Positions 17,109 through 57,930 of a stretch of DNA of 64,000 nucleotides are shown here, in pieces. Both the position numbers and the translations under genes were made by a program. The DNA is from Candidatus Omnitrophota bacterium (GTDB lineage: Bacteria > Omnitrophota > Gorgyraeia > 2-01-FULL-45-10). Numbering within the stretch: position 1 is the stretch's first letter; the number at the start of each line of letters is the position of its first letter. Under the pieces are notes generated by a model. The model saw only the letters and a program-made list of their open reading frames with translations. It did not search any database and was not told where the DNA came from. The DNA lies in the NCBI GenBank assembly GCA_043798375.1, contig JAZDOS010000042.1, forward strand, positions 5,037 to 69,036. The letters run 5' to 3'.

Positions 17109-17118
17109 CGTTCTTAAT

Positions 17119-17265: not shown

Positions 17266-17287
17266 TAAAAAAGTAAGAATTAATGGC

Positions 17288-17316
17288 TTGACAGTTTAAA
17301 TAAACAGAGCTATACT
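17288..17316 (+). promoter_or_regulatory. Consensus sigma70-type promoter for giant gene 2: TTGACA, 17-nt spacer, TATACT
   Basis: ttgaca at 17288-17293 and tatact at 17311-17316, which is 96 nt upstream of the ATG and aaggag RBS. Confidence 0.5.
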
Positions 17317-17354
17317 TTTATTACTTTAACAGCTCTTATTTGTTACATATATAA

Positions 17355-17386
17355 CCTCAAAGGTTGCCTTTAGGCAACCTTTGAGG
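17355..17386 (+). repeat. 5'-leader hairpin of the AGGTTGCC/GGCAACCT palindrome family, between the promoter and RBS of giant gene 2
   Basis: cctcaaaggttgcc ttta ggcaacctttgagg. The same core recurs at 48304-48341 and 57415-57542. Confidence 0.7.
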
Positions 17387-17411
17387 TTGGCAAATTGTAA
17401 GGAGATAAAAT

Positions 17412-27605: not shown

Positions 27606-27611
27606 TTATCG

Positions 27612-28135
27612 TTAAACGGTTGCGGTTGCGCGGCTCGCCACGGTTTTCGTTTATCGTAAAACGTTATGGAAGAAAAGAAAACCATCAGAAGTTTTCATGA
27701 TTTGGAAGTTTATCAAATTGCATATCAAGCGATGCTTGACGCATTTAAACATATTTTGCCCAAACTGCCTTCAGAGGAGAAATACGACTTGGTTGATCAG
27801 CTCAGACGTTCGACCAAAGCCATTCCTCGCTTGATAGCAGAAGGGCATTCTAAAAGACATCAGAAAAAAGGCTTTCAAAAATACCTAGATGATGCAATGG
27901 CAGAATCTAACGAAACAATTGTTTCATTGACCCAGGCGAAAGATTTATATTCTTCAGTGATTGATATAAAGATATGCGAAAGTCTAATAGATAATTACGA
28001 TAAGATAAGCAGGCAGTGTTATAAGTTGGGAATTGCTTGGGATAGATTCGGCGATCGTAAATTAATCGACGCAACCGATAGACGATAGACGAAACGAGCA
28101 GCGCAACCGATAGACGAAAGACGTAACCCGATAGG
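27612..28135. mobile_element. Full-length copy of an inverted-repeat element that carries a four-helix-bundle ORF. It is the parent-like member of a 6-copy family; five ORF-less ~100-bp copies lie elsewhere in the window
   Basis: Left arm cggttgcggttgcgcggctcg (27616-27636) is the reverse complement of right arm acgagcagcgcaaccgatag (28094-28113). The AT-rich cargo ORF lies between GC-richer flanks. The short copies keep both arms and the 'gttatg' start context but lack the ORF. Confidence 0.6.
27666..28088 (+). CDS. Four-helix-bundle protein (TIGR02436 / 23S rRNA intervening-sequence protein family, PF05635-like)
   Basis: FHDLEVYQIAYQAMLDAFKHILPKLPSEEKYDLVDQLRRSTKAIPRLIAEGHSKR matches the family hallmark ..FeDLevWqkA..l...iY.lt..fPkeEkygLtsQlrRAavSIpsNIAEG..R. 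Confidence 0.75.
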   Translation: MEEKKTIRSFHDLEVYQIAYQAMLDAFKHILPKLPSEEKYDLVDQLRRSTKAIPRLIAEGHSKRHQKKGFQKYLDDAMAESNETIVSLTQAKDLYSSVIDIKICESLIDNYDKISRQCYKLGIAWDRFGDRKLIDATDRR

Positions 28136-35162: not shown

Positions 35163-35170
35163 CCTGCCAA

Positions 35171-35187
35171 TTCTAACCAGGTTAGAA
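35171..35187. repeat. CTAACCAGGTTAG-family palindrome overlapping the stop codon of the oxidoreductase, followed by a ggttagaatatg direct repeat (x2)
   Basis: ttctaacc a ggttagaa. The same core is at 17125-17152 and 55095-55197. Confidence 0.7.
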
Positions 35188-35359
35188 TATGGGGGGTTAG
35201 AATATGATGAAGAACTGTTAAGCAATGCCGAAGAAATAGCGAAAATGTTATCGGGTCTGATTAATTCTTTACAAAGATAACTTTGTTTGGTATTATTTTT
35301 TCTTTAACCTATAAGCTTTGAACTATTAGCTATAAACTAAACGCGTAACGGAGAATAGT

Positions 35360-36409: not shown

Positions 36410-36431
36410 TGAGTAAAGAGTAAGTTGTGCC

Positions 36432-36494
36432 GCCTTTTAATTACTCATTACTCATTACTCATTACTCATTACTCATTACGCATTACTCATTACT
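36432..36494. repeat. Tandem heptanucleotide microsatellite (ATTACTC)n of about 9 units (5 perfect plus degenerate units). It forms the 3' arm of a long hairpin with the gene's last codons (gagtaatgagtaaagagtaa)
   Basis: attactcattactcattactcattactcattactcattacgcattactcattactaattacga, read directly from the sequence. Confidence 0.9.
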
Positions 36495-36526
36495 AATTAC
36501 GAATCGCGTATTTTTAAGAGGACTTA

Positions 36527-40810: not shown

Positions 40811-40821
40811 GTAATCGTCTT

Positions 40822-40860
40822 ATTCAGCCTTGGCCGTAGGGGAGGTTTAAACCTCCCCTA
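40822..40860 (+). terminator. Rho-independent terminator: 14-bp GC-rich stem, 6-nt loop, T-tract
   Basis: ggccgtaggggagg tttaaa cctcccctacggcc tttt. Confidence 0.7.
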
Positions 40861-40902
40861 CGGCCTTTTGAGTAACGTTTAAAAATTACCGGCGGGAAGC
40901 TT

Positions 40903-43451: not shown

Positions 43452-43499
43452 GCCGGTAAAATAGGAAATAGTGAAGAGCATTGCGCTGAAAGGATAATC

Positions 43500-45158: not shown

Positions 45159-45163
45159 TCATG

Positions 45164-45288
45164 GATTGCGTTAATCGGTTGCGGTTGCGCGGCTCGTCAC
45201 GTCAAATGTTATGTGTCTATCGTTAAAAAAGACGCAACCGATGTACGATAAACGAAACGAGCAGCGCAACCGATGGACGACAGACGAT
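45164..45288. repeat. Short (~125 bp) ORF-less copy of the inverted-repeat element family, immediately upstream of the response-regulator gene
   Basis: cggttgcggttgcgcggctcgtcacg ... aacgagcagcgcaaccgatgg, plus the internal gttatg..gacgcaaccgat segment shared with the long copy. Confidence 0.8.
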
Positions 45289-45291
45289 CCT

Positions 45292-45960
45292 ATGCGTATC
45301 CTAGTCATCGAAGACGAGAAGAAGATAGCGGATTTCATCAAGCGCGGCCTGAAGGAAGAAGGTTACGCCGTCGACGCGGCATACGACGGCGCCGAAGGGC
45401 AGTTCCTGGCGAAGACCAACAGCTATGACCTCATTCTTCTCGACCTCATGCTGCCGAAAATCGACGGCCTTACCCTCTGCGGCAATCTGAAGAAAGAAGG
45501 GATCGCGATTCCCGTAATCATGCTGACGGCGAAAGACACCGTTGAAGACAAGGTCACCGGCCTCGACGCGGGCGCCGACGATTATATTACGAAACCCTTC
45601 GTCTTCGAAGAACTGCTTGCGAGAGTCCGCGCCGTATTAAGGAAGAAAGGTTCGAAAGAAGCGGCGAAGCTCGAGGTCGAGGACCTTAAACTTGACATCA
45701 TTACCCATAAAGTTACCCGCCGGGACAAAGAGATAATTTTAACGGCCAAAGAGTACGCGCTGTTGGAATACCTTATGCGTAATGCCGGCTCCATCGTCAC
45801 CAGGACGATGATATCGGAGCACGTATGGGACATAGACTTTGACACATTCACGAACGTGATAGATGTCTATATCAATTATTTGAGAAACAAGATCGACGCG
45901 GGGCACGCGAAGAAGCTGATCCATACGGTTCGGGGGAGAGGGTACACCCTGAAAGCATAA
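45292..45960 (+). CDS. OmpR-family DNA-binding response regulator
   Basis: MRILVIEDE..D..LLDLMLPKIDG receiver domain; winged-helix TVRGRGYTL. Start set at the ATG at 45292 because the ORF-track start at 45211 lies inside the repeat. Confidence 0.85.
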   Translation: MRILVIEDEKKIADFIKRGLKEEGYAVDAAYDGAEGQFLAKTNSYDLILLDLMLPKIDGLTLCGNLKKEGIAIPVIMLTAKDTVEDKVTGLDAGADDYITKPFVFEELLARVRAVLRKKGSKEAAKLEVEDLKLDIITHKVTRRDKEIILTAKEYALLEYLMRNAGSIVTRTMISEHVWDIDFDTFTNVIDVYINYLRNKIDAGHAKKLIHTVRGRGYTLKA

Positions 45961-45969
45961 ATCCGGTTA

Positions 45970-46098
45970 CATAAAACGGTTGCGGTTGCGCGGCTCGTCA
46001 CGTCAAACGTTATGCGTCTATCGTTAAAAAAGACGCAACCGATGTACGATAAACGAAACGAGCAGCGCAACCGATAGACGAATAACGCAACCCGCTAG
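45970..46098. repeat. Second near-identical short copy of the inverted-repeat element, immediately upstream of the histidine-kinase gene
   Basis: Over 90% identical to 45164-45288 by eye. Confidence 0.8.
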
Positions 46099-46110
46099 GG
46101 AAAATAACGC

Positions 46111-47574
46111 ATGTTTTATAAGTCCATCCGCTTCAAAATAACGATCCTCTACATGGCGATTCTCGCCCTGACCATCTCATCCTTCAGCGCCGTCCTATAC
46201 CATAATGTATCCCAGGGTCTGTACAACAATATGGACATCCTCTTAAAGTCAAAGGCCGGCGGTATATCAAAGGCGATCAATACCTACTGGGAGACATCGA
46301 CCCTGGAAGAGCTGGCAAGCGGTGTCCAGCCCGACGAGGTTTTAAGAAAAAGGCGCAATTTCAACTTCACGAAAGTCGCCCAGAACTGGGTAAGGGAAGA
46401 GTCGAAGGACCCGGAACTTCTGAGCATCATAGTCACAGTTTTCGATACCGACGGCGCGACGATCGCCTCATCCAAAAATGCCCGGGGGCTTACCCAGATC
46501 CCGAGAAGAGACTTTATATCCGTTCTGCAGGGCAAGGCCAGGTTCGACACCGTAGGATCGATGAGAATATACACGACGCCCGTATTTGAGAATGAAAAGG
46601 TCGCGTATATCGTGCAGGTCGCAAGCTCCCTTCAGCCGTTACAGGCCGCGCTCAACAATATAAGAGTGGCGCTCTTCGTGTTATTCCCCATCACCGTGCT
46701 TGCGACCGGAATAATGGGCGCGCTTCTTGCCAAGGTCACTCTTCGCCCGGTCGACAGGATGATACATACGATACATCAGATCACGGCGGAAAATATGAGG
46801 CTGAGGCTCGAGAATCCCAATACGAAAGACGAGATCCAGAAACTTGCCGCGACGTTCAACAGCATGCTCGAGCGCCTCGAACATGCCTTCGCGTCACAGA
46901 AAAAACTTTTCGAGAACCTGTCGCATGAACTGAAGACGCCGCTGACCATATTGAAAGGTGAATTCGAAGTGGTTCTGAAGAAGACCCGCTCCCAGGCGGA
47001 GTATGAGGCGATACTGAAGAGCGCCCTTGAAGAGGTTGACAGGATGACGAGGCTTGCCGGGAACCTGCTTGAGCTTGCAAGGCTTGAGTCGAAAGAGGTA
47101 TTTCCCGAGAAGAAGAGGCTTAACCTTAATCTTATAGTGCGCGGCATAGTCAATAATATAAGGAAAGTCGCGGAATCCAAGAATATCAGCGTTTCATGCA
47201 GGGCCGAAGACGAACTGTTCGTAGAAGGGGACGAGGACAGGCTGAAGACCATGTTCCTTAATATACTGGACAACGCGGTCAAGTATACAAAACCCGGAGG
47301 CGGCATATCCGTGACATCGGAAAGACACGGCTCGTTTGTAAATGTAAAGATAGACGATACGGGAATAGGCGTTTCTAAGGAGGAAATAGACCACATCTTT
47401 GACCGGTTCTACCGCACCGAGAACGCGAGGGCAAATATGGGGTTCGGCCTGGGGCTAAGCATAGCCAAATCTATAGTAGAGGCGCACAAGGGCGATATCA
47501 AGGTAGAGAGCCGGTCTTCCAAAGGCACAGCATTTACCGTTTCCCTGCCCCTCTCCGCCTACGCAATCAACTAG
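46111..47574 (+). CDS. Sensor histidine kinase (2 TM helices, periplasmic sensor, HAMP, HisKA, HATPase_c)
   Basis: H-box [10 protein letters not shown]; G-boxes DDTGIGV and [18 protein letters not shown]. Confidence 0.85.
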
Positions 47575-47696
47575 TGATAGAGCAGGTGCTTCGGCGGACA
47601 AGCATTAGAATATTTTAATATTCTTCTAACCTTCTTTTAACCGCAGGTAATGTATAATTAAGGTAGAGGATAAAAAATAGAAAGGGGGGCAGTTGT

Positions 47697-48287
47697 ATGA
47701 AAAAGTTAATGGTCATAGCTCTGGCGATAGCCTTTGCATTCGGCTTCTCGAGCTTAGCCCGGGCCGAAGAGAAGGTCATATTCGGTTTTGAAAAGGATAC
47801 CCAGGGCTGGGAGATACCGGAATGGGCGCTTGAGCAGGAGGATCACGTAGCGAAGACGGCGGAGTCTTCCAAAGATTTCGCTAAAGAAGGCAAGGGGTCG
47901 CTTAAAGTAATGGCGGACTTCCCGGGCAAGATATGGGCGGCCGGGCTGGTGGAGGATTTTGAGTATTTTGACTGGACGCCTTACAAGGCCATATCCGTCG
48001 ATGTCTACATACCCAAAGACGCGCCGGTCGGATTAAAGGCAAAGATAGTATTGACGGTAGGCGAAGGCTGGAAGTTCATCGAAATGGCGCGCTCGATCGC
48101 GCTCGTCCCGGGAGAGTGGGTTACGATCACCGCGGATCTTATGCCCGGAAGCGAAGATTGGAAGAGGACGGTAGTTGACGATAATTTCAGGAAAGACGTC
48201 CGTAAGATAGCCGTCAGAGTCGAGTCGAACAGGAAACCGGAATATAAGGGCCCATTCTACGTCGATAATATAAGGCTTACAAAGTAA
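47697..48287 (+). CDS. Secreted ~22 kDa beta-sandwich/CBM-like protein (paralog A), with signal peptide
   Basis: MKKLMVIALAIAFAFGFSSLARA signal peptide. Shares VIFGFEKDTQGWEIPEWA, LTVGEGWK and YVDNIRL motifs with 49461-50063. Confidence 0.6.
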   Translation: MKKLMVIALAIAFAFGFSSLARAEEKVIFGFEKDTQGWEIPEWALEQEDHVAKTAESSKDFAKEGKGSLKVMADFPGKIWAAGLVEDFEYFDWTPYKAISVDVYIPKDAPVGLKAKIVLTVGEGWKFIEMARSIALVPGEWVTITADLMPGSEDWKRTVVDDNFRKDVRKIAVRVESNRKPEYKGPFYVDNIRLTK

Positions 48288-48303
48288 TTTGAATAACCGT
48301 ATT

Positions 48304-48341
48304 AACCTTTAAGGTTGCCTACGGCAACCTTAAAGGTTAAT
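48304..48341 (+). repeat. AGGTTGCC/GGCAACCT-family hairpin in the leader of the second GH-A hydrolase gene
   Basis: ttaacctttaaggttgcc tac ggcaaccttaaaggttaa. Confidence 0.7.
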
Positions 48342-48414
48342 ATGGGTTAGGGTAGCAGGGTCTTGACCATGCCCGCGAAAAGTAGTATAATATATATTCT
48401 CATAAGAGGTTAAA

Positions 48415-49452
48415 ATGATTAAAAGACTTATATTGATAATCGTTATAATGGTTCTCTTTTGCGGGCCCGCCTTCTCTTATGAATGGCAAAAGGGTATTTG
48501 CTATACTGCCTGGGCGAAAGATAAATACTCGTCCACTGCTTCCGACGAATCCCTCCGGGCCCTCTCTGAAACCGGGGCTAATTGGGTAAGCATCCTGACC
48601 ACATGGTATCAGGATACGTGTCACGATACGGATATACACCCCACCGAGAAGACCCCAAGCGACGAAAGCATCATTCACGCCATCAAAGAAGCGCATTCTC
48701 TCGGGATGAAGGTCATGATAAAGCCTCATCTCGATATCATAGACACTTCCGACGGGAGCTGGCGCGGAGATATAGGATGCAAGATAGATACCGACTGGGA
48801 CGCATGGTTTGAGAGTTACAAAGATTTCATTGTCCATTATGCCGTATTGGCGGAGGAGAACAAGGCCGAGATGTTGTGCATCGGTACCGAGCTTACATCC
48901 ATTTCCGCGATAAAAGAGGATAAGTGGAGAAACGTAGTAATTAAATCGGTCAGAGAGGCATATAAGGGGCCGTTGACATACGCGTCAAACTGGAATGATG
49001 AATACGGGCACATCAAATTCTGGGATGCCCTTGACTACGTAGGCATCGATGCCTATTACCCGCTTGTGGAAGACAAGGCTGTGCCGACGTTAGAAGAGAT
49101 AAAGAAAGGGTGGGAGCCGTGGGTGAAAGACCTCGAGGCGTTTCAGGAGAGGGTCGATAAACCGATAATATTCCCGGAGGTAGGATATTGCAGCGCGGAC
49201 TGGACGGCGAAAACCCCATGGGAAGAGCTTACCGGACATACGAATGTGAAGCTTCAGGCGGACTGTTACGAAGCTCTTTTGCAAACTTTCTGGCAGAAGG
49301 ATTGGTTTTACGGGGTCTATTGGTGGAGATGGGGGACAAATAAGGACTTCGGCGGCCCCAACAACAGGGGTTATATTTTCCGCAATAAACCCGCCGAGAA
49401 GATCGTGGAAAAGTGGTATGAGAAGCATGTGCCGACAAAGTTGAAGTACTAA
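48415..49452 (+). CDS. Secreted clan GH-A (GH113/GH5-like) glycoside hydrolase, a paralog of the catalytic domain of 43500-45158
   Basis: Signal peptide; CIGTELTS and IFPEVGY motifs; collinear with the 43500 catalytic domain (WYQD..., SDESI.HAI..AH.LGMKVM.KPH.D). Confidence 0.65.
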   Translation: MIKRLILIIVIMVLFCGPAFSYEWQKGICYTAWAKDKYSSTASDESLRALSETGANWVSILTTWYQDTCHDTDIHPTEKTPSDESIIHAIKEAHSLGMKVMIKPHLDIIDTSDGSWRGDIGCKIDTDWDAWFESYKDFIVHYAVLAEENKAEMLCIGTELTSISAIKEDKWRNVVIKSVREAYKGPLTYASNWNDEYGHIKFWDALDYVGIDAYYPLVEDKAVPTLEEIKKGWEPWVKDLEAFQERVDKPIIFPEVGYCSADWTAKTPWEELTGHTNVKLQADCYEALLQTFWQKDWFYGVYWWRWGTNKDFGGPNNRGYIFRNKPAEKIVEKWYEKHVPTKLKY

Positions 49453-49460
49453 AATTTTTT

Positions 49461-50063
49461 ATGCCGAAATTAAAAATATTTTTAATTCTTTTAATAACAG
49501 TTGCCTTTTTTACCGTCCTGCCGGGATTGGCATATTCAAAAGAGATCGTTCTATACGGTTTTGAGAAAGACCCTCAAGGGTGGGAGATACCCGATTGGAC
49601 GATGGGTAAAGCCGACCATGTCGGCCGCCAGATAAGCGTCTCCGAATTTAACGCGAGCGAAGGCGGATATTCGCTGGAATTCGATGTTGAATTTTCCGGC
49701 AGTCCGCGATGGGAGGGCGCATACGTCGAGCGCGTTATAGACGTTACCGACTGGAGCCCGTTCAGCTGCCTGTCCGTCGACATCTTCCTTCCGAAGAACG
49801 CGCCGCAGGGCTTGAGGGCGCGGGTTATATTGACCGTAGGCGAAGGCTGGAAATGGACTGAAGGCAACAAGGCGTTCCCGCTTACCCCGGGCGAGTGGAC
49901 TGTCATAAAGCTGGACCTCACCCCGGATAGCATGTCCTGGCGGAAGTTCATAGACGACAACTTCAGGAGCGATATAAAGAAGCTGGGCATCAGGATCGAG
50001 TCTAACGGCAAGATCGCGTACAAGGGGCCGGTCTACATCGACAATGTGAAGCTGTCAGATTAA
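49461..50063 (+). CDS. Secreted beta-sandwich/CBM-like protein (paralog B)
   Basis: Signal peptide; VLYGFEKDPQGWEIPDWT, LTVGEGWKW, YIDNVKL. Confidence 0.6.
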   Translation: MPKLKIFLILLITVAFFTVLPGLAYSKEIVLYGFEKDPQGWEIPDWTMGKADHVGRQISVSEFNASEGGYSLEFDVEFSGSPRWEGAYVERVIDVTDWSPFSCLSVDIFLPKNAPQGLRARVILTVGEGWKWTEGNKAFPLTPGEWTVIKLDLTPDSMSWRKFIDDNFRSDIKKLGIRIESNGKIAYKGPVYIDNVKLSD

Positions 50064-50158
50064 AGTAAAAAGTAAAAAGTAAAAAGGTAAAAGTGCAAGT
50101 AAAAATTAAAAATTTTGACTTTTAAATTGTAATTTTTCCTTTTTCCTTTTTACTTTTA
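50064..50158. repeat. AT-rich ~95-bp imperfect palindrome built from GTAAAAAG / CTTTTTAC repeats
   Basis: aagtaaaaagtaaaaagtaaaaaggtaaaagt ... acttttaccttt reverse-complement arms. The same motif forms the first 30 nt of ORF 43500. Confidence 0.7.
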
Positions 50159-50182
50159 CCTTTAACTTGGGTAGCAAGTGTA

Positions 50183-52552
50183 ATGAAGTACGGCTATTTT
50201 GACGACAAGAACCGCGAGTTCGTAATTACACGCCCCGACACGCCTACTCCGTGGATAAATTATTTAGGGTGCGATGAATATTGCGCCCTCATATCCAATA
50301 CCGCCGGCGGATACAGTTTCCACCGCGACCCCAAAGAGAGAAGAATCACAAGATACAGGTATAATAACATTCCCGCCGACAGGCCGGGCCGTTATATATA
50401 TTTGCGCGACCGGGATTCGGGCGATTACTGGCCGGCCACCTGGCAGCCGGTGTTAGAACCGAAAACCGCAAACCGAAAACCGCAAAATTATAAATACGAA
50501 TGCCGGCACGGGATGAGCTATACCAGGATCAAAAGCGGGTATAATGGCATAGCGGCAGAGACTACTTATTTTGTGCCCCTGAAGGAAAACCTGGAATTAT
50601 GGGTACTGAATATAAAAAATACCTCTAAGAGGAAGCGGAGGCTCTCCATATTTACCTACCTCGAATTCTGCCTGTGGCATGCCGTCATGGATATGACCGA
50701 CCTCCAGTATACCCTGAATATTTCAAAAGCGGTGTGCAGGAAGGATGTGATATACCACCTCACCGGTTATTTTCCTTCCGAAGGCAGGAACGATTTCGCG
50801 TTCTTTTCGTCCAGCGAAAAGGTCAGGGGTTTCGATTGCGACAGGGAAACATTTATCGGCCCCTATAATTCGGAAGCGAACCCGCTTGTTGTATCGCTCG
50901 GAAAGTCATTCAATTCCGTAAATTCAGGCGGTAACCCGATAGCCTCGCTCTGTAATACGATCACGCTGAAACCGTCGGAGGAGAAGACGGTCGTATTCTC
51001 ACTCGGCGTCAGCGATTCGATGAAAGAGGCGGATAATCTTATATCGAAATATAAAAGCCTCAAAAACGCCAGGGATGAATTTGAGAAACTCAAAGCCTGC
51101 TGGGCGCTGTATTTCGAGAATTACATTTGCGATACGCCGGACGATAAGGTCGATCTTATGGTAAATACGTGGAACCAGTATCAGTGCAGGACGACGTTTA
51201 ACTGGTCGCGTTCGGCCTCTTACTACGAATCCGGCATCGGCAGGGGAATGGGCTTCAGGGATTCGAATCAGGACACGCTCGGCGTCGTCCATGCCATTCC
51301 TGACAGGGTCAAGGCGAGGATCAAAGAGCTTCTGGAGTGCCAGTTCGAAAACGGCTCAACCTATCACCAATTCTTCCCGCTCACCAAAAAAGGCGAAAAG
51401 GGCGGCTACTCGGACGATCCGCTGTGGCTGGTCGTTTCGTGCTCCGGCTATATTAAAGAGACCGGGGACGCGGGATTCCTTAATGAAACGGTCCCGTTCA
51501 CCGATTCCGGGAAGGCGACCGTCTATGAACACCTGAAAAGGGCCATCGATTTCGTCTCTTCCAAAGTCGGCCCGCGCGGATTTCCTTTGATAGGATTTGC
51601 CGACTGGAACGACTGCCTGAACCTCACGGGGAAGAATAACGCCGCCCAGAGCGTATGGGTGGCGCAGTTCCTGGTATGGGCCGCGAATGAATTCTCGAGG
51701 CTCGCCGGGCTTTTAGGCAGGGCCGGCGATGTCAGGGAATACACCCGCGCCGCGAACGCGATGAAGGATAGGATAAATAAAATAGCCTGGGACGGAGATT
51801 GGTATATTCGCGCTTATGACGACGATGGTAATCCTGTCGGCTCATCCAAAAACAAAGAAGGCAGGATTGATCTATTGACGCAAGTCTGGGCCGTAATCGG
51901 CGGAATCGCCGGAGATAAGAGGGCGGTTCGATGCATGGATATGGTGAAAAAATATCTCGATTCGAAACACGGTATAATGCTCATCGCCCCGCCATACACG
52001 GGCTACGATGCAAAGATCGGCGCGGTCGGGACATTCGCGCCGGGCCTGAAAGAGAACGGCGGTATATTCTGCCACGCGAATCCCTGGGGGATGATAGCCG
52101 AGACCATGATCGGCCGCGGCAATGCCGCGTTCGATTATTATGCCAAGATCGCCCCTGCGTTCAGAAACGACATATCGGATACTCATTCGACGGAACCTTA
52201 TGTTTACGCGCAGTATATAGCCGGAAGCGGCCATCCGGCATTCGGCCGCGGGAGGAATTCGTGGCTTACCGGAAGCGCCGCATGGAATTTTTACGCGGTA
52301 ACAGCGTATATTCTGGGCGTGAGGCCCGATTATAAAGGCCTCATAGTCGATCCGTGCATACCGGCGAAATGGAAATCATTCAAGGTAAAGAGGGCCTTCA
52401 GGGGCGCGACATACGAGATAAAGGTCAAAAACCCGAAAGGCGCGCAGAAGGGCGTCAAATCGATGACGGTCGATGGCGTAAAAGTGCCGGGCAAGATCAT
52501 CCCGGCGCGGAAGGATAAGAATGTCCATAAAGTTGAAGTGGTGATGGGGTGA
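50183..52552 (+). CDS. GH94 family disaccharide phosphorylase (cellobiose/cellodextrin-phosphorylase-like)
   Basis: MKYGYFDDKNREFVITRPDTPTPWINYLG...LISNTAGGYSFHRDPKERRITRYRYNNIP closely follows the GH94 N-terminal hallmark. Also GMGFRDSNQD, and the length of 789 aa fits. Confidence 0.85.
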   Translation: MKYGYFDDKNREFVITRPDTPTPWINYLGCDEYCALISNTAGGYSFHRDPKERRITRYRYNNIPADRPGRYIYLRDRDSGDYWPATWQPVLEPKTANRKPQNYKYECRHGMSYTRIKSGYNGIAAETTYFVPLKENLELWVLNIKNTSKRKRRLSIFTYLEFCLWHAVMDMTDLQYTLNISKAVCRKDVIYHLTGYFPSEGRNDFAFFSSSEKVRGFDCDRETFIGPYNSEANPLVVSLGKSFNSVNSGGNPIASLCNTITLKPSEEKTVVFSLGVSDSMKEADNLISKYKSLKNARDEFEKLKACWALYFENYICDTPDDKVDLMVNTWNQYQCRTTFNWSRSASYYESGIGRGMGFRDSNQDTLGVVHAIPDRVKARIKELLECQFENGSTYHQFFPLTKKGEKGGYSDDPLWLVVSCSGYIKETGDAGFLNETVPFTDSGKATVYEHLKRAIDFVSSKVGPRGFPLIGFADWNDCLNLTGKNNAAQSVWVAQFLVWAANEFSRLAGLLGRAGDVREYTRAANAMKDRINKIAWDGDWYIRAYDDDGNPVGSSKNKEGRIDLLTQVWAVIGGIAGDKRAVRCMDMVKKYLDSKHGIMLIAPPYTGYDAKIGAVGTFAPGLKENGGIFCHANPWGMIAETMIGRGNAAFDYYAKIAPAFRNDISDTHSTEPYVYAQYIAGSGHPAFGRGRNSWLTGSAAWNFYAVTAYILGVRPDYKGLIVDPCIPAKWKSFKVKRAFRGATYEIKVKNPKGAQKGVKSMTVDGVKVPGKIIPARKDKNVHKVEVVMG

Positions 52553-52563
52553 AAGGTAAAAGG

Positions 52564-52662
52564 TTGCGTTTTACGGTTGCGGTTGCGCAACTCGTAACGT
52601 ATGACGTTAAACGTAAAACGTAACGAGCAGCGCAACCGATAAACGAAAGACGAATTAATTAG
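52564..52662. repeat. Short variant copy of the inverted-repeat element family, ending 18 nt before the GT2 start codon
   Basis: ttgcgttttacggttgcggttgcgcaactcgtaacg...aacgagcagcgcaaccgataaacgaaagacgaattaatta. Confidence 0.8.
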
Positions 52663-52680
52663 AAAGGAGTAGCGCTAAGA

Positions 52681-53820
52681 ATGAGTGAGTTGCCGTTTAT
52701 ATCAATAATCAATCCTATAAGGAACGTTGAGAGGACTATAGAGACAAACCTGCAATATTTGATCGGCATAGATTATCCGAAAGAGAGATGCGAGATAGTA
52801 TTCGGCGACGGCGGCTCCACCGACAGGACCGTCGATATAATAAGGGACTGGCAGAAAAGATACGAGCTCATAAAGCTCGTAATAGTCCCGAATTCCAAGT
52901 CACCCGGCGAGGCGAGAAACGCGGCGCTCAAAATGGCCAAGGGCGATTATATCCTATTCACCGACGGCGACTGCGCCCCGAGAAAAGACTGGGCGAAAAA
53001 ACTTCTGGAACCGTTCCTGAAAGACCCGTCTATCGGCATGGTCGGCGGCGAGATACATACATTGAGGACCGACCCCGATAACGACGTCGAGTCCTATTGC
53101 GAACAGACGAAGTTCCTGACGGTGGCCGGCAGGTGCCTCGCGACGGAAGAAGGTTACTATCCCGGCATCACACAGGACCTTCCTTCGGAAGTGAACGGCA
53201 ATATCCACAGCCCGTTCTTCGCGACGGCGAACGCAGCTGTCAGTAAAAAGGCGGCGGACGCCATAGGGCGGGAATTCTGGCACGAGATAACGAGCGAGGA
53301 CGTCGACTTTAGTTTGAGGATCCTGAAGAAAGGTTTCAGGCTTTATTACAAACCATCCGCCATAGTCGACCATATGCACAGGGTGACGCTTCAAGCGTAC
53401 TGCAAACAGCTGTACGGATACGGGTTCGGCCATCCGCTCGCGGTCCTGAAACACGCCAAAAAAGTCATCGAGATACAGTTCCAGTGGACGCCGCGCTACA
53501 TAACGTTCGTAATGCCCTCATCCGTTAGGGGTATTATCTACTTGGGCGATTATCATTTTATGCATTTATTTGGGATGGCTTTTGTGGTAAACTTATTACA
53601 GACATTATTCACGCAGAACCTGACAATCTGGCTTTGGATATGGCTTGCGCTTACCATGTTCTTCAAATATAGGTATTTCAGGCCGATGTTGAAACTTACG
53701 CCCCGCGGCAAGTTTTTGAAATGGTGCTGGATCAGATATGTCTCGAACTGGGCGCTTATGAAGGGCGGATTCAAAGGCGGCAGGACATTCGGAGTGATTT
53801 ATCTCGAGTCAAGCTGGTAG
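52681..53820 (+). CDS. Family 2 glycosyltransferase (GT-A fold) with a C-terminal membrane extension
   Basis: DGGSTDRT, FTDGDC (DXD), then hydrophobic helices after residue ~290. Confidence 0.75.
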   Translation: MSELPFISIINPIRNVERTIETNLQYLIGIDYPKERCEIVFGDGGSTDRTVDIIRDWQKRYELIKLVIVPNSKSPGEARNAALKMAKGDYILFTDGDCAPRKDWAKKLLEPFLKDPSIGMVGGEIHTLRTDPDNDVESYCEQTKFLTVAGRCLATEEGYYPGITQDLPSEVNGNIHSPFFATANAAVSKKAADAIGREFWHEITSEDVDFSLRILKKGFRLYYKPSAIVDHMHRVTLQAYCKQLYGYGFGHPLAVLKHAKKVIEIQFQWTPRYITFVMPSSVRGIIYLGDYHFMHLFGMAFVVNLLQTLFTQNLTIWLWIWLALTMFFKYRYFRPMLKLTPRGKFLKWCWIRYVSNWALMKGGFKGGRTFGVIYLESSW

Positions 53821-53838
53821 ATTTAAACGAGGTGAGAA

Positions 53839-55098
53839 ATGGCGTTACGGGAAGGGACATTAAAAAGCGAGCGCTTCACTGAAAAGGAACGGCGCAATCT
53901 TGCCATACTCGATATCATCAGAAGGACCAGAGAAGTCTCAAGGGCCGAGATTTCTAAGATCACCCACCTTAATATAGTAACAATATCCAACTACATAGAT
54001 GATTACATTGCCAAAGGCCTCGTCCTCGAGAAGGGATACGATGTATCCAGCGGCGGAAGAAGGCCGGAACTCCTGGAGATCAATTCTAAATTCGGATACA
54101 CTATCGGCATAGACCTCGGTTCGCCCCATATCATGGAGAATTCCATGATTGTGGGCACGCTGGTGGATACCGCAGGGAAGATCATCTGCAAGGTGAAGAC
54201 CAAAAAAGAGGAAGAGTCCCAGGAAAATTTTATAAACAGGGTAACAGGCATTGTCAGGGACCTTTACGGCAGGTCTAAAGTGGAAAAGGCGAGGGTGAAA
54301 GGCGTCGGGATAGCGATATGGGGTGTCCTGGACAGATATAAAGGCACTGTGAGGTATGCGGTCGAGAAAGGCAGCGTCTTCAGCTACAACGCGCTTCAAT
54401 CTTCAATCGAAAAGGAGTTTAGCGTCCCCACGCTCGTAGAGCATGACGCTACAGCCGGCGCCCTGGGAGAGAAGTGGATGGGGCTGGGCTTGAGCCAGGA
54501 GGCCGAGAACATACTTTATATGTGCTCCGATTCCAGCTGCGGCCTTATCCTGAACGGCGAATTGTATTACGGCGTCTCAAAAAGCGCCGGAGAATTGAAT
54601 ATAAACCCTCCATCGCCCGATTATAAGGACGATAACTGCTGGGCAAAATATGATTACGGATGCGGCTTCAGGTCGAGGGGCATAGATCTCGGGATTTCTT
54701 CGCGCGCGAAATCCCGTTTAAGCCAGAATAAAAACGGCAATTCCAAAATCCTCGAGCTTGTGAACGGCAAGCTTGACAGCGTTTCACTTAATACGATAAT
54801 AGAAGCGGCCAGGCTTCAGGATAAACTTGCGATAGAGCTTCTGTCCGAAGCGGGAGATTATCTCGGCGCGAAGATATCGTTTCTTATAAACCTGTTCAAC
54901 CCGGATTCCATCGTGATCGGAAGAGGCATGGAAAAGGGCGGCGACATATTCATGGACGCCGTGAGGAAGAGCGTTAAAAAGTGGGCTTACGAAGAATCGC
55001 TCAAGGTCGTCAGGATCGTGCCGGCGTCCCTCGGCGAGGATTCTATAGCCTGCGGCGCGTCGGCGCTTGTAATGCAGCAGATATTTGCGAAGATCTAA
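53839..55098 (+). CDS. ROK-family transcriptional regulator (N-terminal wHTH plus sugar-kinase-like domain)
   Basis: LAILDIIRRTREVSRAEISKITHLNIVTISNYI HTH; ROK fold GIDLGSP...GIAIWGVLD...CGCG-like Cys cluster CSDSSCG. Confidence 0.75.
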   Translation: MALREGTLKSERFTEKERRNLAILDIIRRTREVSRAEISKITHLNIVTISNYIDDYIAKGLVLEKGYDVSSGGRRPELLEINSKFGYTIGIDLGSPHIMENSMIVGTLVDTAGKIICKVKTKKEEESQENFINRVTGIVRDLYGRSKVEKARVKGVGIAIWGVLDRYKGTVRYAVEKGSVFSYNALQSSIEKEFSVPTLVEHDATAGALGEKWMGLGLSQEAENILYMCSDSSCGLILNGELYYGVSKSAGELNINPPSPDYKDDNCWAKYDYGCGFRSRGIDLGISSRAKSRLSQNKNGNSKILELVNGKLDSVSLNTIIEAARLQDKLAIELLSEAGDYLGAKISFLINLFNPDSIVIGRGMEKGGDIFMDAVRKSVKKWAYEESLKVVRIVPASLGEDSIACGASALVMQQIFAKI

Positions 55099-55197
55099 CC
55101 AGGTTAAACCTTGTGGTAACCTGACAGATTTAACCTGGTTAGTAACGCTCTAACCAGGTTAAACCTTGTGGTAACCTGACAGATTTAACCTGGTTAG
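55095..55197. repeat. Two tandem 48-bp units, each a 14-bp-stem hairpin of the CTAACCAGGTTAG family, between the ROK gene stop and the binding-protein gene
   Basis: ctaaccaggttaaaccttgtggtaacctgacagatttaacctggttag repeated twice with a 7-nt spacer. Confidence 0.85.
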
Positions 55198-55209
55198 AAA
55201 AAGGGAAAG

Positions 55210-56439
55210 ATGAGAAAAATATTCGCCATATTTCTTATAAGCTGTCTCCTGGTATCCGGCTGCGGTAAATCCGAGGGCAGGAAGGCGCCGGGCGAGACCC
55301 GGATAACGATGTGGCTCATCGGCTCCGAGGCCCAGGCGCTCACGATAAAAAAATTAGCCGAAGAATTTTACAGCCAGACCGGGATAAAGGTGAAATGCGA
55401 CGCGATATCGTGGGGCGACGCGCATTCGAAGTACCTTACCTCTATCGCGGGAGGCGTTGCGCCGGACATAGGCACGATGGGGCTTACGTGGGGGGCCGAG
55501 TTTGGCAAACTCGATTCCATGGTAGATTTGAAGAAAGAGTATCCGCAAGAGGTAAATTCGATAAAGGAAACGGTCTTCGCCGGCCTTTGGAATTCGATAG
55601 AGCATAAAGGCAAGGTCTACGGCATACCTTTCGACATGACCGAATACATTCTTTATTACAGAAATGATATTATAGCGAATCCTCCGCGCGACTGGGAAGA
55701 GCTGGTCAGCCTGTTGACGGATTTAAATAAAAAAGGACAGGGGATGATCTTCGACTGGGGATCTTTAAGCTGGATAGGATATTCCCCCTTCCTATGGCAG
55801 GCAGGCGGTGATTATTATAATGAGGATTATTCGGCCATCACGATAGATTCGGAAGCCGCTGTCAAAGGGATGAATTTCTTCGCCGGCCTGTACCTGAAAT
55901 ATAATGTTCCGAAGACAAAGATCCCGATAGAGCAGGGGATGAGAACGGGAGATTTTCCTATAGCGATCTCAGGAAACTGGAAGATAGACGACCTCAGGCT
56001 GCTGGCGCCGGAGATAGCGGGAAAATGGTCCATCGCTACATTGCCCAAAGGCCCGACGGGAAAGAAGACAGCGTTTATCGGAGGCAGGATAATGGGCATA
56101 TTCAGCCAGTCGAAACATAAGGTTGCGGCGTGGAAGTTCATAAAGTTTCTATTCAGGCCCGAAACTCAAGCTAAACTCTATGAAGCGGCGCTTGCGGAAC
56201 AGGATACGTACCTGCCTCCGAGCATGAAGGCATGGCCCATGCTTAGTATGGACCCGAAGTTTAAAGAGGTCCTGGTTTCTCAAGCCAATGACTCCAAGGG
56301 GCCTCCGGTAGTCGCGAGCTGGGATTCATGCGCCAGATATATGGACGAGGCTATTCAGAAGGTGATTTTGCAGAAGGCCGACGCGAAGAAGGAATTGGAG
56401 ATCGCGAAAACACAGCTGGAAAGATTGCTTAAGAAGTAG
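55210..56439 (+). CDS. ABC transporter extracellular sugar-binding lipoprotein (family 1 SBP, CUT1)
   Basis: Lipoprotein signal LISCLLVSGCG; typical SBP_bac_1 length and motifs. Confidence 0.75.
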   Translation: MRKIFAIFLISCLLVSGCGKSEGRKAPGETRITMWLIGSEAQALTIKKLAEEFYSQTGIKVKCDAISWGDAHSKYLTSIAGGVAPDIGTMGLTWGAEFGKLDSMVDLKKEYPQEVNSIKETVFAGLWNSIEHKGKVYGIPFDMTEYILYYRNDIIANPPRDWEELVSLLTDLNKKGQGMIFDWGSLSWIGYSPFLWQAGGDYYNEDYSAITIDSEAAVKGMNFFAGLYLKYNVPKTKIPIEQGMRTGDFPIAISGNWKIDDLRLLAPEIAGKWSIATLPKGPTGKKTAFIGGRIMGIFSQSKHKVAAWKFIKFLFRPETQAKLYEAALAEQDTYLPPSMKAWPMLSMDPKFKEVLVSQANDSKGPPVVASWDSCARYMDEAIQKVILQKADAKKELEIAKTQLERLLKK

Positions 56440-56477
56440 TATAATGATTTTGCTTCACAAAATTCGGGGGTGACATT

Positions 56478-57392
56478 ATGAAGAAACAGGCGGTGTTTGT
56501 CGTTGCGGTGTTTATGCTTGCCTCTTTGATATGCGTTGAAAAGGCGCATGCCGGCGCCTGGACAGTCCCGAAATACAAAGTCTGGGCGGAGTATTACATG
56601 AAATGGAATTACGCGAAGGATACCTATAACGAGAGCGAGAATTTTACGTCGAGCGGCAACCATTCGAAGAACTTCAGGTCATGGGAATTCGTGCAGGAAC
56701 CGAAGCTGGAGTATGGTATTACAGACTATCTTAACTTCCTCTACAGTATGGAATTTAAAGAGGGCCACTACAAGGAATACGACAGGCCTCCAAGCTGGGG
56801 CCCTTTTACCAAGAAGAACCACGGCCTCACAAATGTCAAAATAGGAGGCAAGTGGCGTTTTCTCGAAAAACCGGTCGTGCAGAGCCTGCAGGGCAAGTTT
56901 TTTATATATCCCGGCTATGGGAATTACGTAAGCGAAGCAAATGGCGGAGCCGACGGATATCCGTATCAGCCTTCGATAGGCTACGGCGATGACGCGTTCG
57001 AATTGAGATGGCTCATGGGACAATCGTTCAAATTTCCCATCAGGGATGATTGGAGGCTGCCGGTCTACTGGGGCACCGAGATAGGCTACAGGTGGAGGAG
57101 TAAAGCCGTCTGCAACGATATCCCGTACTTCTTCGAATGCGGCTTCTGGCCATCCTCCTGGTTTTTGGTCAAGACGGAACTGGACGGATACAGGTTCCAT
57201 GGCGGCACGGGCAGTATCAAGGAGAGCTACGGCATATGGCGTATCGGCGGCGTATGGCAGGTCTTCGGCGACAGCACTCTCAGGGCCGGCAATAAGCTCT
57301 TCAATATAGAATTTCAATACGGCATGGTGGTCTGGGGAAGGAATACGAACGCGGCGCAGGAATGGGTGCTGAAGGTCCAGACACAGTTCTAG
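56478..57392 (+). CDS. Putative outer-membrane beta-barrel protein
   Basis: Signal peptide, alternating amphipathic aromatic-rich strands, C-terminal ...VQTQF ending in Phe. Confidence 0.35.
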   Translation: MKKQAVFVVAVFMLASLICVEKAHAGAWTVPKYKVWAEYYMKWNYAKDTYNESENFTSSGNHSKNFRSWEFVQEPKLEYGITDYLNFLYSMEFKEGHYKEYDRPPSWGPFTKKNHGLTNVKIGGKWRFLEKPVVQSLQGKFFIYPGYGNYVSEANGGADGYPYQPSIGYGDDAFELRWLMGQSFKFPIRDDWRLPVYWGTEIGYRWRSKAVCNDIPYFFECGFWPSSWFLVKTELDGYRFHGGTGSIKESYGIWRIGGVWQVFGDSTLRAGNKLFNIEFQYGMVVWGRNTNAAQEWVLKVQTQF

Positions 57393-57414
57393 CTGATATA
57401 ACCTCGCTAATATA

Positions 57415-57542
57415 ACCTCCGAGGTTGCCAAAGGCAACCTCGGAGGTTGACAGGTAAACAGAGGTTGCCAAAGGCAACCTCTGAGGTTGACAGGTAAGCA
57501 AAGGCAACCTCAGAGGTTGACAGGTAAGAGGTTGACAGGTAA
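57415..57542. repeat. Degenerating tandem array (about 4 units) of an AGGTTGCC-aaa-GGCAACCT palindrome followed by GAGGTTGACAGGTAAG, ending 3 nt before the next gene's ATG
   Basis: cctccgaggttgccaaaggcaacctcggaggttgacaggtaaaca / gaggttgccaaaggcaacctctgaggttgacaggtaagc / aaaggcaacctcagaggttgacaggtaag / aggttgacaggtaag. Confidence 0.85.
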
Positions 57543-57544
57543 GA

Positions 57545-57817
57545 ATGGGATTATTCAAAAAGAATAGGCCGAAATTCGGCGAGCTCCTGGTCGAAAAAGG
57601 CCTTGCCACGCAAAAAGATGTGGAAGAGGCCCTGAAGACACAGAGGGAAATATGGGATACGAAACAGATCCAGAAGAACCTCGGGAGTATACTTAACGAA
57701 AAAGGTATTATTGACGTGGAAGATATAGAGGATGTCCTTCAGGAACAGAAGAGGCGGGAAGGATTTCTTTTGAAGGGTTTTGTATATTCCGTCTTCCATT
57801 CGGGCCAGCCTAAATAA
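57545..57817 (+). CDS. Small stand-alone protein with two T2SSE_N/MshEN-like repeats (the N-terminal domain of GspE/MshE; possible c-di-GMP-binding fold)
   Basis: FGELLVEKGLATQKDVEEALKTQREI and LGSILNEKGIIDVEDIEDVLQEQ both match the consensus LGelLve.GlIt.eql.eAL..Q. Confidence 0.5.
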   Translation: MGLFKKNRPKFGELLVEKGLATQKDVEEALKTQREIWDTKQIQKNLGSILNEKGIIDVEDIEDVLQEQKRREGFLLKGFVYSVFHSGQPK

Positions 57818-57829
57818 AAGATTGCGTTT

Positions 57830-57930
57830 TACGGTTGCGGTTGCGCAACTCGTAACGTTTAACGTTAACCGTATAACGTAACGAGCAGCGCAACCGATAA
57901 ACGAAAGACGAATTAATTAAAAGAAGGAGT
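57830..57930. repeat. Short variant copy of the inverted-repeat element family, ending ~10 nt before the htpX start; near-identical to 52564-52662
   Basis: ttgcgttttacggttgcggttgcgcaactcgtaacg...aacgagcagcgcaaccgataaacgaaagacgaattaattaa. Confidence 0.8.

Follow-up and report, generated by a model that had tools for sequence, protein, structure and literature searches.

Hairpin elements filling intercistronic spacers in a Candidatus Omnitrophota contig, one of them enclosing a gene for a PF05635 protein

The window, a stretch of 64,000 nucleotides from a Candidatus Omnitrophota contig, contains five copies of a repeat family, all on the + strand: one of 0.5 kb with an open reading frame (ORF) and four ORF-less ones of 97-129 nt. 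The features are:

27604..28135, + strand: full-length element (5' arm ~27612-27665; ORF 27666-28088; 3' arm 28068-28135), from arms, repeat grouping, covariance-model matches to both ends, and ORF
27666..28088, + strand: gene for a 140-aa PF05635 / TIGR02436 four-helix-bundle protein, from Pfam and NCBIfam
45163..45291, + strand: ORF-less copy, type A, 129 nt, from repeats, fold (-50 kcal/mol, z -4.2) and covariance model (103 bits)
45964..46098, + strand: ORF-less copy, type A, from repeats, fold and covariance model (114 bits)
52561..52662, + strand: ORF-less copy, type B, ~97 nt, from fold (z -4.3) and covariance model (93 bits)
57819..57922, + strand: ORF-less copy, type B, from fold (z -6.1) and covariance model (94 bits)

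The 5' arm, CGGTTGCGGTTGCGC, has exactly five matches in the window (27617, 45176, 45977, 52574 and 57832, all +; 0.16 expected by chance), and the 3' arm, CGAGCAGCGCAACCGAT, is matched exactly at 28095, 45258, 46059, 52624 and 57882. A repeat search of the window grouped the same loci together, and a covariance model run over the 64 kb with filters off recovered the short copies at 45163-45291, 45964-46092, 52561-52657 and 57819-57915 with 93-114 bits, its other matches falling only at either end of the long copy. The family proposed in a first-pass annotation of this DNA is real, but six copies had been counted there: there are five, and the supposed sixth is no more than the ORF copy's right arm.

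All five copies fill whole intercistronic spacers between protein-coding genes, at 3-10 nt from the preceding stop codon and 0-22 nt from the next start codon. The full-length element, whose 3' arm overlaps the end of its ORF, lies 7 nt past the stop of a 3397-aa gene and ~10-22 nt ahead of the start of a 1973-aa gene. The copy at 45163..45291 constitutes the entire spacer between a GH113 gene (stop 45156-45158) and a response regulator (ATG 45292), and the copy at 45964..46098, which is 94% identical to it, separates the response regulator (stop 45958-45960) from a histidine kinase (ATG 46111). The copy at 52561..52662 has a GH94 gene upstream (stop 52550-52552) and a GT2 gene downstream (ATG 52681), and that at 57819..57922 lies between a 90-aa ORF (stop 57815-57817) and an M48/HtpX peptidase gene (ATG 57940). 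The downstream genes of the short copies had been correctly named in the first-pass annotation; its description of the copies as lying just upstream of a start codon is accurate as to distance, but they lie just as closely downstream of a stop codon. As all genes of the window are on the + strand, shared orientation and proximity to starts largely follow from intergenic placement.

The arms are two imperfectly complementary halves that fold into a long interrupted stem, and they are built of CG-phased units of 6-7 nt (GGTTGCG TTAAACG GTTGCG GTTGCGC .. CTCG … CGAG .. GCGCAACCG ATAGACG … CGCAACC), with 76% of CG-CG spacings falling at 5-7 nt versus 19% in shuffles. The window copies fold stably, with z-scores of -3 to -6, and in an alignment of 30 hairpins the proposed pairing register leaves 81.7% of the cells paired, versus at most 42% when the register is slid. 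Because their core does not vary, these 30 hairpins show no more covariation than shuffled controls do, and function at the RNA level is therefore inseparable from function at the DNA level. The asymmetry between G-U and A-C pairs in the same table is uninformative, as each class stands at about 9%; by fold energy the sense strand is preferred only weakly (16 vs 6).

The forms of ~100-130 nt are internally deleted, non-coding derivatives of the ~0.5-kb element, as their common arms and relic ORF ends indicate; on this point the first-pass annotation, which had likened them to MITEs derived from a parent element, is upheld. In the copies at 45163 and 45964 the start codon is preserved, as are, in the same frame, the final ~14 codons (…RNEQRNR and stop) of 148-aa relatives of the ORF, and the 45964..46098 copy has a relic mini-ORF at 46012-46077, MRLSLKKTQPMYDKRNEQRNR followed by a stop. 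In the 45163..45291 copy TGG stands in place of the usual TAG, so that the frame opened by the relic start codon at 45211 continues into the response regulator (ORF 45211..45960). The "gttatg" start context, thought to be kept in the short copies generally, is present in these two (45211 and 46012) but not in the others: the ATG at 52601 in the third is unrelated to it, and the fourth has no ATG.

[quoted passage not shown] The ORF has no other Pfam or NCBIfam domain, and PF05635 is still termed functionally uncharacterised. An exact-sequence look-up of the product returned no record, but a homology search recovered an identical protein, P0001, from a Candidatus Omnitrophota MAG. Values of dN/dS against homologues are 0.03-0.10, with dS saturated, and show strong purifying selection on the protein. 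Among the closer homologues (at least 77% aa identity) the identity of the arms is ~0.8-0.85 versus ~0.55 at third codon positions: in nucleotide sequence the arms are kept much more closely than synonymous sites are.

The family extends well outside the window. At least 118 genome loci match a 19-base pattern, with about 4 expected by chance by calculation, and the covariance model verifies about 75 of the first 100, with GC contents of 0.43-0.72. The verified hairpins, at least 75 in number, occur in MAGs labelled as about nine phyla, these labels being those of MAG bins in which contigs may be misplaced, and there are several copies per MAG in Omnitrophota, Planctomycetota, Desulfobacterota and others. 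Metagenomes contain at least 464 ORF-bearing relatives, nearly all flanked by arms; in nearly all of 75 distinct ORF-bearing metagenome loci the arms are tight against the PF05635 gene, with its start and stop inside them, and arm sequence varies in step with protein subfamily. A subfamily HMM built from 120 homologues found just three ORFs in the 118 genome loci, all known before, and the longer "cargo" copies L004, L018 and L029 have no recognisable ORF. Viral contigs contained no relative of the ORF, and the two arm matches in them were rejected as chance occurrences in GC-rich coding sequence. Full-text searches of the literature gave no account of PF05635 elements that are bounded by hairpins and lie between protein genes.

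In the syntenic operons of three related Omnitrophota (L119, L120/L121 and L122) the element is absent from three of the sites, where the spacers are 11-64 nt long; the window copies are therefore lineage-specific, recent insertions into very short intercistronic spacers. No empty counterpart of the 57830 copy was recovered. Relatives carry different hairpins at the same spacers. The inserted sequence extends from the stop codon to the downstream start or, at one site, to a pre-existing Shine-Dalgarno: the AGAAAGGAG found 3' of the 52561..52662 copy also occurs in the empty site of a relative. At 52564, the one site with an informative empty counterpart, the AGGAG beside the element is host sequence, and the earlier suggestion that the element supplies the region just 5' of it is not confirmed there. 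Junctions of filled and empty sites could not be aligned for target-site duplications, the relatives being too diverged (flanking GH94, 74-89% aa identity), and this comparison yielded no identifiable excision junction. No transposase gene adjoins any copy in the window; we infer mobility from the distribution of the copies only.

The orientation of ORF-bearing copies in operons is strongly skewed towards sense (33 "++" vs 2 "--" among the 75 metagenome loci); examples are an IVP gene between FTHFS and FolD, and copies directly behind same-strand tRNA-Ser and tRNA-Gly genes. These members evidently rely on read-through transcription from the host. ORF-less copies in other genomes, where gene orientation was called by a longest-ORF heuristic, show no bias relative to their flanking genes (SS 14, AA 11); 10 of 38 are placed between convergent genes, where no start follows, and 3 of 38 in divergent promoter spacers. 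Copies scattered in this way, without orientation or start-codon bias, are what the first-pass annotation had named as contrary to its own claim of a cis-regulatory role. A scan of the elements found no sigma-70-like promoter, terminator-like site or U-tract terminator. Rfam, which had been suggested as a check, returned no family for the whole window at the gathering threshold, for one element region even at E<=10, or for eight related loci; its only matches were 5S and 23S rRNA, ~4 kb away from one copy in L060.

In REP/REPIN-RAYT systems and bacterial MITEs such as the Neisseria Correia elements, short hairpins are scattered between genes and either come from, or go together with, a gene bordered by copies of the repeat; they are co-transcribed with their neighbours and their presence varies among relatives. 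The window family fits the description of both in these hairpin traits, and its short copies are MITE-like in being non-coding, in sharing terminal inverted repeats with a longer coding element, and in being present or absent at orthologous sites (the three that are empty in L119, L120/L121 and L122). Correia hairpins are reportedly cut by RNase III. Unlike in a MITE, however, the longer partner encloses a PF05635 gene instead of a transposase gene; unlike in REP/REPIN-RAYT, the flanked gene is not a RAYT (an IS200/IS605-like Y1 transposase), its product being a four-helix-bundle protein without known catalysis and not an HUH/Y1 or DDE transposase; and unlike in either group, nearly identical arms recur across many phyla.

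The full-length element shares its architecture with the ORF-bearing intervening sequences (IVSs) of 23S rRNA in Leptospira and Coxiella burnetii, whose complementary ends also form a long stem and whose loop also contains a PF05635/S23p gene that is read in the sense of the host transcript. In the Coxiella IVS the stem of terminal inverted repeats is 28 bp long, tandem heptamers precede the S23p ATG, the ORF is in sense, and RNase III excises the element (PMC4990558); tandem heptameric repeats adjoining the ORF, sporadic, horizontally spread occurrence and short ORF-less versions are common to both families (PMC4990558). By analogy, RNase III processing of the window stems is plausible. The rRNA IVSs are inserted at helix tips of 23S (or 16S) rRNA genes, in 23S rRNA in helix 9, 25 or 45, whereas the sites here are operon spacers or tRNA 3' flanks; an Rfam scan found no rRNA gene in the window and no copy was seen within one. 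Other differences are the several copies per genome region and the clear purifying selection on the PF05635 gene, as opposed to the decaying ORF of the Coxiella IVS. The TAACTGA heptamer repeats of Beggiatoaceae, Cyanobacteria and Bacteroidetes are likewise 7-nt phased, intergenic, often near start codons, and patchily spread across phyla in a manner suggesting horizontal transfer, but they are direct tandem repeats with no described hairpin partner or protein gene (PMC4679880), while here such phased units make up a pair of inverted arms with a PF05635 gene between them. Avd of diversity-generating retroelements, a pentamer with a four-helix-bundle fold similar to S23 proteins, acts with RNA containing Avd-binding stem-loops (bioRxiv 10.1101/2023.10.23.563531; PMC10053308). 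The PF05635 protein has a homologous fold; in contrast to Avd its gene is itself inside the hairpin, and since two giant genes flank the element directly there is no adjacent gene of reverse-transcriptase size.

These results can be interpreted by regarding the copies as, probably, members of a large cross-phylum family of selfish hairpin elements of the rRNA IVS type, here located between protein genes. Once transcribed in operon RNA, the arms would pair into an interrupted stem of 35-45 bp, returning the stop codon upstream and the start region downstream to proximity and making the insertion nearly neutral, by the same logic as for an IVS that extends an rRNA helix. RNase III would probably cut the stem, as shown for rRNA IVSs, and the PF05635 protein would probably bind this stem of repeat units. 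Effects on neighbouring genes would be by-products of insertion with no conserved regulatory design; the response regulator, having lost its own spacer, may start at the relic ATG of the element. A wider proposal, possible but doubtful, is that PF05635 proteins and CG-phased heptad hairpins constitute an unrecognised autonomous/non-autonomous mobile system with no known transposase, in which the stem of repeat units, whether RNA or DNA, would be recognised by a pentameric protein of Avd type that would be needed to propagate or maintain both the full-length and the ORF-less elements, the 23S rRNA IVSs being the subset that landed in rRNA.

It seems unlikely that these are REP-like elements domesticated by the host as operon punctuation, stabilising mRNA against 3' exonucleases, admitting RNase III/E or setting differential expression of cistrons. 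Such a role would agree with the preference for transcribed co-directional or convergent spacers and the avoidance of divergent promoter spacers, with the conserved arm sequence, with the different hairpins that relatives carry at the same spacers, and with the fact that nearly every window spacer of at least 90 nt carries a long hairpin of some family. Yet occupancy of a given site is lineage-specific, U-tract terminators are lacking, and the arms are shared by, and diverge together with, the enclosed protein gene, which points to constraint on the element and not on the host. Little probability attaches also to a DNA-level MITE or REPIN moved by a transposase that acts in trans from another locus (for example an enzyme of IS200/IS605 or RAYT type, which recognises DNA hairpins) with the PF05635 gene as mere cargo: terminal inverted repeats, multiple intergenic copies per genome, neutral orientation of ORF-less copies and the lack of RNA-specific covariation are all compatible with it, but the full-length element encloses PF05635 only, with no transposase beside any window copy, arms are apposed to that gene in nearly all 75 metagenome loci and shift with its subfamily, and target duplication was not seen among relatives too diverged for junctions to be aligned. 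The dedicated cis-regulatory leader (a promoter, RNase III-processed 5' UTR or riboswitch-like hairpin selected to control the downstream gene) that the first-pass annotation had preferred to random insertion is largely refuted and very improbable, for despite five stable, sense copies ending 0-22 nt ahead of a start codon, one of which replaces an entire spacer and gives the response regulator an in-frame ATG, the orthologous spacers of three relatives are empty, the downstream genes are unrelated in function, ORF-less members elsewhere are unbiased in orientation and in 10 of 38 cases lie between convergent genes, promoter, terminator and Rfam matches are lacking, and these hairpins also occur as the inverted arms on either side of a protein gene.

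Where rRNA IVSs come from and what their S23p/PF05635 ORF does have been open questions since the early 1990s (PMC4990558). On the IVS-type reading, the window and several hundred related loci indicate that such elements are found mostly between ordinary genes, in about nine MAG-labelled phyla, with a strongly constrained protein, arms that are conserved and co-diverge with it, and gene-less hairpins spawned from it. For the annotation of Omnitrophota, Planctomycetota and similar MAGs a caution follows, as conspicuous, conserved "leaders" ahead of start codons can be spacer-filling mobile hairpins. The protein and its cognate hairpin, filled and empty sites, and dependence on RNase III provide a testable system; the mobile-system proposal, if true, would vindicate the 1993 idea of Ralph and McClelland, as summarised in PMC4990558, that the IVS ORF is a component of mobility.

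The 5' arm motif CGGTTGCGGTTGCGC occurs five times in the 64-kb window, always on the + strand, where 0.16 occurrences would be expected, and the 3' arm motif CGAGCAGCGCAACCGAT recurs exactly at five matching downstream positions. Both arms recognized by the first-pass annotation are therefore real and far above chance; independent repeat finding grouped the same loci. A covariance model of the family, run without filters over the window, recovered four short copies (93-114 bits on the + strand, 60-71 on the - strand) and the two ends of one long copy, with no further copies beyond these. The family thus counts five members in the window and not the six originally proposed, the alleged sixth being the right arm of the ORF-bearing copy.

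Copies of the element in the window (copy coordinates from the covariance model)
about 27604-28135, +, long ORF-bearing copy (copy 1), two ends matched
27666-28088, +, 140-aa ORF of the long copy, PF05635 '23S rRNA intervening sequence protein', E 1.1e-18
45163-45291, +, ORF-less copy 2
45964-46092, +, ORF-less copy 3
52561-52657, +, ORF-less copy 4
57819-57915, +, ORF-less copy 5

Copies 2 and 3 are 94% identical to each other by repeat comparison, while copies 4 and 5 form a second subtype, with about 61% identity between the subtypes outside the core. All plausible genes of the window are on the + strand. A gap of 3-10 nt separates each copy from the preceding stop codon and one of 0-22 nt from the next start, so that the entire intercistronic spacer is occupied; the description of the copies as lying just upstream of start codons is correct as far as it goes, but they lie equally just downstream of stop codons. 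The downstream genes are those named earlier (an OmpR-type response regulator, a HAMP/HisKA kinase, a GT2 glycosyltransferase and an M48/HtpX peptidase), and are housed in a glycan-utilisation cluster with GH113, CBM27 and GH94. The full-length element is placed between the second and third of three consecutive giant + strand ORFs (99-17108, 5669 aa; 17412-27605, 3397 aa; 28145-34066, 1973 aa).

The 140-aa product also matches TIGR02436 ('four helix bundle protein'), and its closest solved relative (E 6e-4) is XCC0516 (2GSC), a pentameric S23p structure (PMC4990558). It is identical to a protein (P0001) annotated on a 70,979-nt contig of a Candidatus Omnitrophota MAG. Comparison of the window ORF with 12 homologues yielded dN/dS values of 0.03-0.10 wherever computable, with saturated synonymous sites (dS about 1 or more). 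These substitution patterns indicate that the PF05635 protein of the element is functional, and that the ORF-bearing copies compared are not recent duplicates. In the closer pairs (at least 77% aa identity) identity is about 0.8 for the non-coding 5' arm and about 0.85 for the 3' arm, as compared with about 0.55 for third codon positions; in more distant pairs arm divergence goes along with protein divergence. Since the frame of the 3' arm differs between members, or the arm falls past the stop codon, its conservation is at the nucleotide level.

Folding gave a long interrupted hairpin for every short copy (-41 to -50 kcal/mol, z -3.1 to -6.1). When 30 short members from many genomes were aligned, the pairing scheme consisted of an outer stem of 7 bp (GGTTGCG/CGCAACC), a 5x5 internal loop, a stem of 6 bp bulged by one base, a core stem of 9 bp (CGGTTGCGC/GCGCAACCG), a 2x2 loop and an innermost stem of 4 bp (CTCG/CGAG). 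In register, 81.7% of the positions in these members are paired, versus at most 42% when the scheme is slid. Stem covariation in the same 30 members did not exceed that of shuffled controls, the core being invariant. The arms consist of units ending in CG, a dinucleotide present at twice its expected frequency: CG-to-CG spacings are 5-7 nt in 76% of cases, versus 19% in shuffles, and exactly 7 nt in 36%. By fold energy there is only a weak preference for the sense strand (16 vs 6).

The analogy with MITEs drawn by the first-pass annotation holds, as the short copies are deletion derivatives, three of them with a relic of the ORF. Copy 3 retains an ATG in the context 'AAACGTTATG', which translates to MRLSLKKTQPMYDKRNEQRNR and a stop; the final residues and the stop match the C-terminus of 148-aa relatives (…DDIRNEQRNR and stop in the related locus L123). 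Copy 2 carries the same relic with TAG mutated to TGG, and consequently its ATG at 45211 opens a reading frame that continues into the response regulator (45211..45960), to which it adds 27 codons. Neither a spacer nor a Shine-Dalgarno belonging to the response regulator itself remains, and the element may have taken over the start of this gene. A shorter relic, MTLNVKRNEQRNR and a stop, is present in copy 4; no relic reading frame was found in copy 5. The reading frame indicates that copies 2 and 3 derive from an element of the 148-aa type rather than from the window's 140-aa copy, which is read in a different frame at the 3' arm. Other Omnitrophota and Sedimentisphaerales contain homologous short forms whose loop is similar but has no ATG (loci L002, L060, L105, L112, L025), and therefore ORF-less lineages persist and spread independently.

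Are these elements conserved leaders or insertions? The gene order GH113-RR-HK-GBD-GH113-CBM27-GH94-GT2-ROK (RR, response regulator; HK, histidine kinase) is kept in three related Omnitrophota contigs, L119, L120/L121 and L122, whose GH94 is respectively 89, 74 and 74% identical to that of the window. None of the three contains the arm motifs.

Spacer lengths in the window and in its syntenic relatives
GH113 to response regulator: window 134 nt, L119 21 nt, L120 32 nt, L122 57 nt
response regulator to kinase: window 150 nt, L119 13 nt, L120 34 nt, L122 11 nt
GH94 to GT2: window 128 nt, L119 contig ends, L120 64 nt, L122 19 nt

At the GH94-GT2 site L122 reads TAG-AGAAAGGAGTAACACAGTA-ATG and the window …AATT-AGAAAGGAGTAGCGCTAAGA-ATG; by this comparison the Shine-Dalgarno is host sequence, and the element is inserted between it and the stop codon. 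Unrelated hairpins occupy the same spacers in other lineages. Comparison of these contigs marks the window elements as lineage-specific insertions into operon spacers, not conserved leaders.

One genome per species was scanned with a 19-base pattern taken from the 5' arm, which matched at least 118 loci, versus about 4 calculated by chance; among the first 100, some 75 hairpins were verified by the covariance model. Their GC content ranges from 0.43 to 0.72, which implies that copies have adapted to different hosts, and their MAG labels include Omnitrophota, Planctomycetota (Sedimentisphaerales, Pirellulales, Phycisphaerales), Desulfobacterota/'Deltaproteobacteria', 'Pseudomonadota', Lentisphaerae, Armatimonadota, Cloacimonadota, Verrucomicrobiota and Dehalococcoidia. 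Matches in isolate genomes (Pseudomonas, Pseudonocardia, others) were chance matches inside coding sequence. Several MAGs hold 3-6 copies within the sequence blocks examined, and one Pirellulales MAG combines an ORF-bearing copy (L109) with ORF-less ones (L063, L064, L080), as in the window. A protein search returned 3162 homologues, the closest being 75-90% identical and annotated from different phyla. A metagenome scan gave at least 464 relatives of the ORF, and in nearly all of the best 80 loci (75 distinct) the arms lie directly around it. Relatives at 62-70% aa identity have other arm sequences with the same phased architecture, and GAAGCTCG/TTTATCG units make up arms in the distant relatives L204, L206 and L211. 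At about 72% aa identity, L171, L175 and L179 have CG-poor arms, where other bases take the place of the phased CG dinucleotides (GGTTGGGCTGCTGGTTTGGGTTAATG…); in this subfamily the periodic architecture survives without CpG. Tandem arrays, with at least one extra ORF-less hairpin directly before or after the ORF-bearing element, were seen in L139, L140, L154, L158, L160, L164, L182 and L192.

Orientation was scored at the 75 distinct metagenome loci with a longest-ORF heuristic for flanking genes. ORF-bearing elements share the strand of the upstream gene in 51 cases vs 8, and of the downstream gene in 49 vs 8; both flanks are sense in 33 and antisense in 2. The arrangement FTHFS-IVP-FolD (IVP, the PF05635 gene) is present in at least 24 samples. 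Relatives also lie directly behind same-strand tRNA-Ser(TGA) or tRNA-Gly(GCC) genes (L187 2843-3001, L189 1574-1733, L141 2761-3001), and therefore also ride on stable-RNA transcripts. The ORF evidently depends on host read-through transcription. For ORF-less hairpins of other genomes, oriented by the covariance model with a score difference of at least 10 bits, both flanks are sense in 14 cases and antisense in 11, 10 lie between convergent and 3 between divergent genes, and flanking genes overall are 50 sense vs 45 antisense; finding all four short copies in sense is not significant where every gene is on the + strand. Gene-less hairpins show no preferred orientation, often lack a start codon downstream, and avoid divergent promoter spacers. 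Given this neutrality, the syntenic spacers devoid of arms, and the absence of sigma-70-like promoters and intrinsic terminators from the four short copies, the cis-regulatory role first proposed is not borne out; the Rfam search suggested along with it matched no family at the gathering threshold or at E<=10.

Long, near-perfect hairpins of other sequence families, at least one per spacer, are present in nearly all window spacers of at least 90 nt; many are centred on AACC…GGTT or GGTTGCC/GGCAACC motifs and some stand in tandem.

Other hairpins and repeats in the window
17109-17411, 35163-35195, 40811-40870, 48297-48345, 55094-55200, 57403-57530: spacers with other hairpin families
36391-36509: heptamer-armed hairpin, left GAGTAAT/GAGTAAA, right ATTACTC repeated about 8 times
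43490-43574 and 50048-50165: two A-rich 7-nt-phased repeats (AAAGTAAAAAG…), inverted, 64 nt, 78% complementary
40811-40902 (and L122 4744-4800): 26-nt palindromic core GTAGGGGAGGTTTAAACCTCCCCTAC

The left arm of the heptamer-armed hairpin overlaps the end of gene 35360-36409; the hairpin is similar to the heptad-built arms seen in distant PF05635 elements, and also to intergenic heptamer repeats described in the literature (PMC4679880). The A-rich repeats enclose the block GH113-RR-HK-GBD-GH113-CBM27 (6.5 kb). Of these repeats, the right-hand one forms a hairpin by itself, and the left-hand one overlaps the annotated start of gene 43500-45158, which may actually begin further downstream. The GTAGGGGAGGTTTAAACCTCCCCTAC core sits in different spacers in the window and in L122 (there GH113-RR), and looks like another mobile hairpin family. 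Several hairpin-element families seem to have colonised this genome.

These results identify the window elements as a PF05635-encoding hairpin element of the type of the rRNA intervening sequences (IVSs), together with its ORF-less derivatives. It occurs across phyla in multiple copies per genome, its coding form is embedded in sense, and both protein and arms are under strong constraint. In structure the element is an ORF-bearing IVS that lacks only the rRNA location by which that class is defined, and by description it is a MITE/REPIN that lacks a transposase. In Coxiella, the 23S IVS is bounded by a terminal inverted-repeat stem of 28 bp, carries tandem heptamers (GACAGAT) ahead of the S23p start and an ORF sense to the host transcript, and is excised by RNase III (PMC4990558); terminal-repeat stem, phased repeats and sense ORF are common to both, and RNase III enters here by analogy. 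The element would be co-transcribed with the operon, and its stem would put stop and start back side by side, so that insertion would be tolerated. RNase III may cut the stem, as in rRNA IVSs, and the PF05635 protein may bind its own repeat-built stem in the manner of Avd, which binds RNA stem-loops (bioRxiv 10.1101/2023.10.23.563531). Full-text literature searches yielded no account of PF05635 elements lying between protein genes, nor of hairpins derived from such elements, and the domain is still described as functionally uncharacterised. The finding bears on the old question of the nature of IVSs and of their ORF (PMC4990558).
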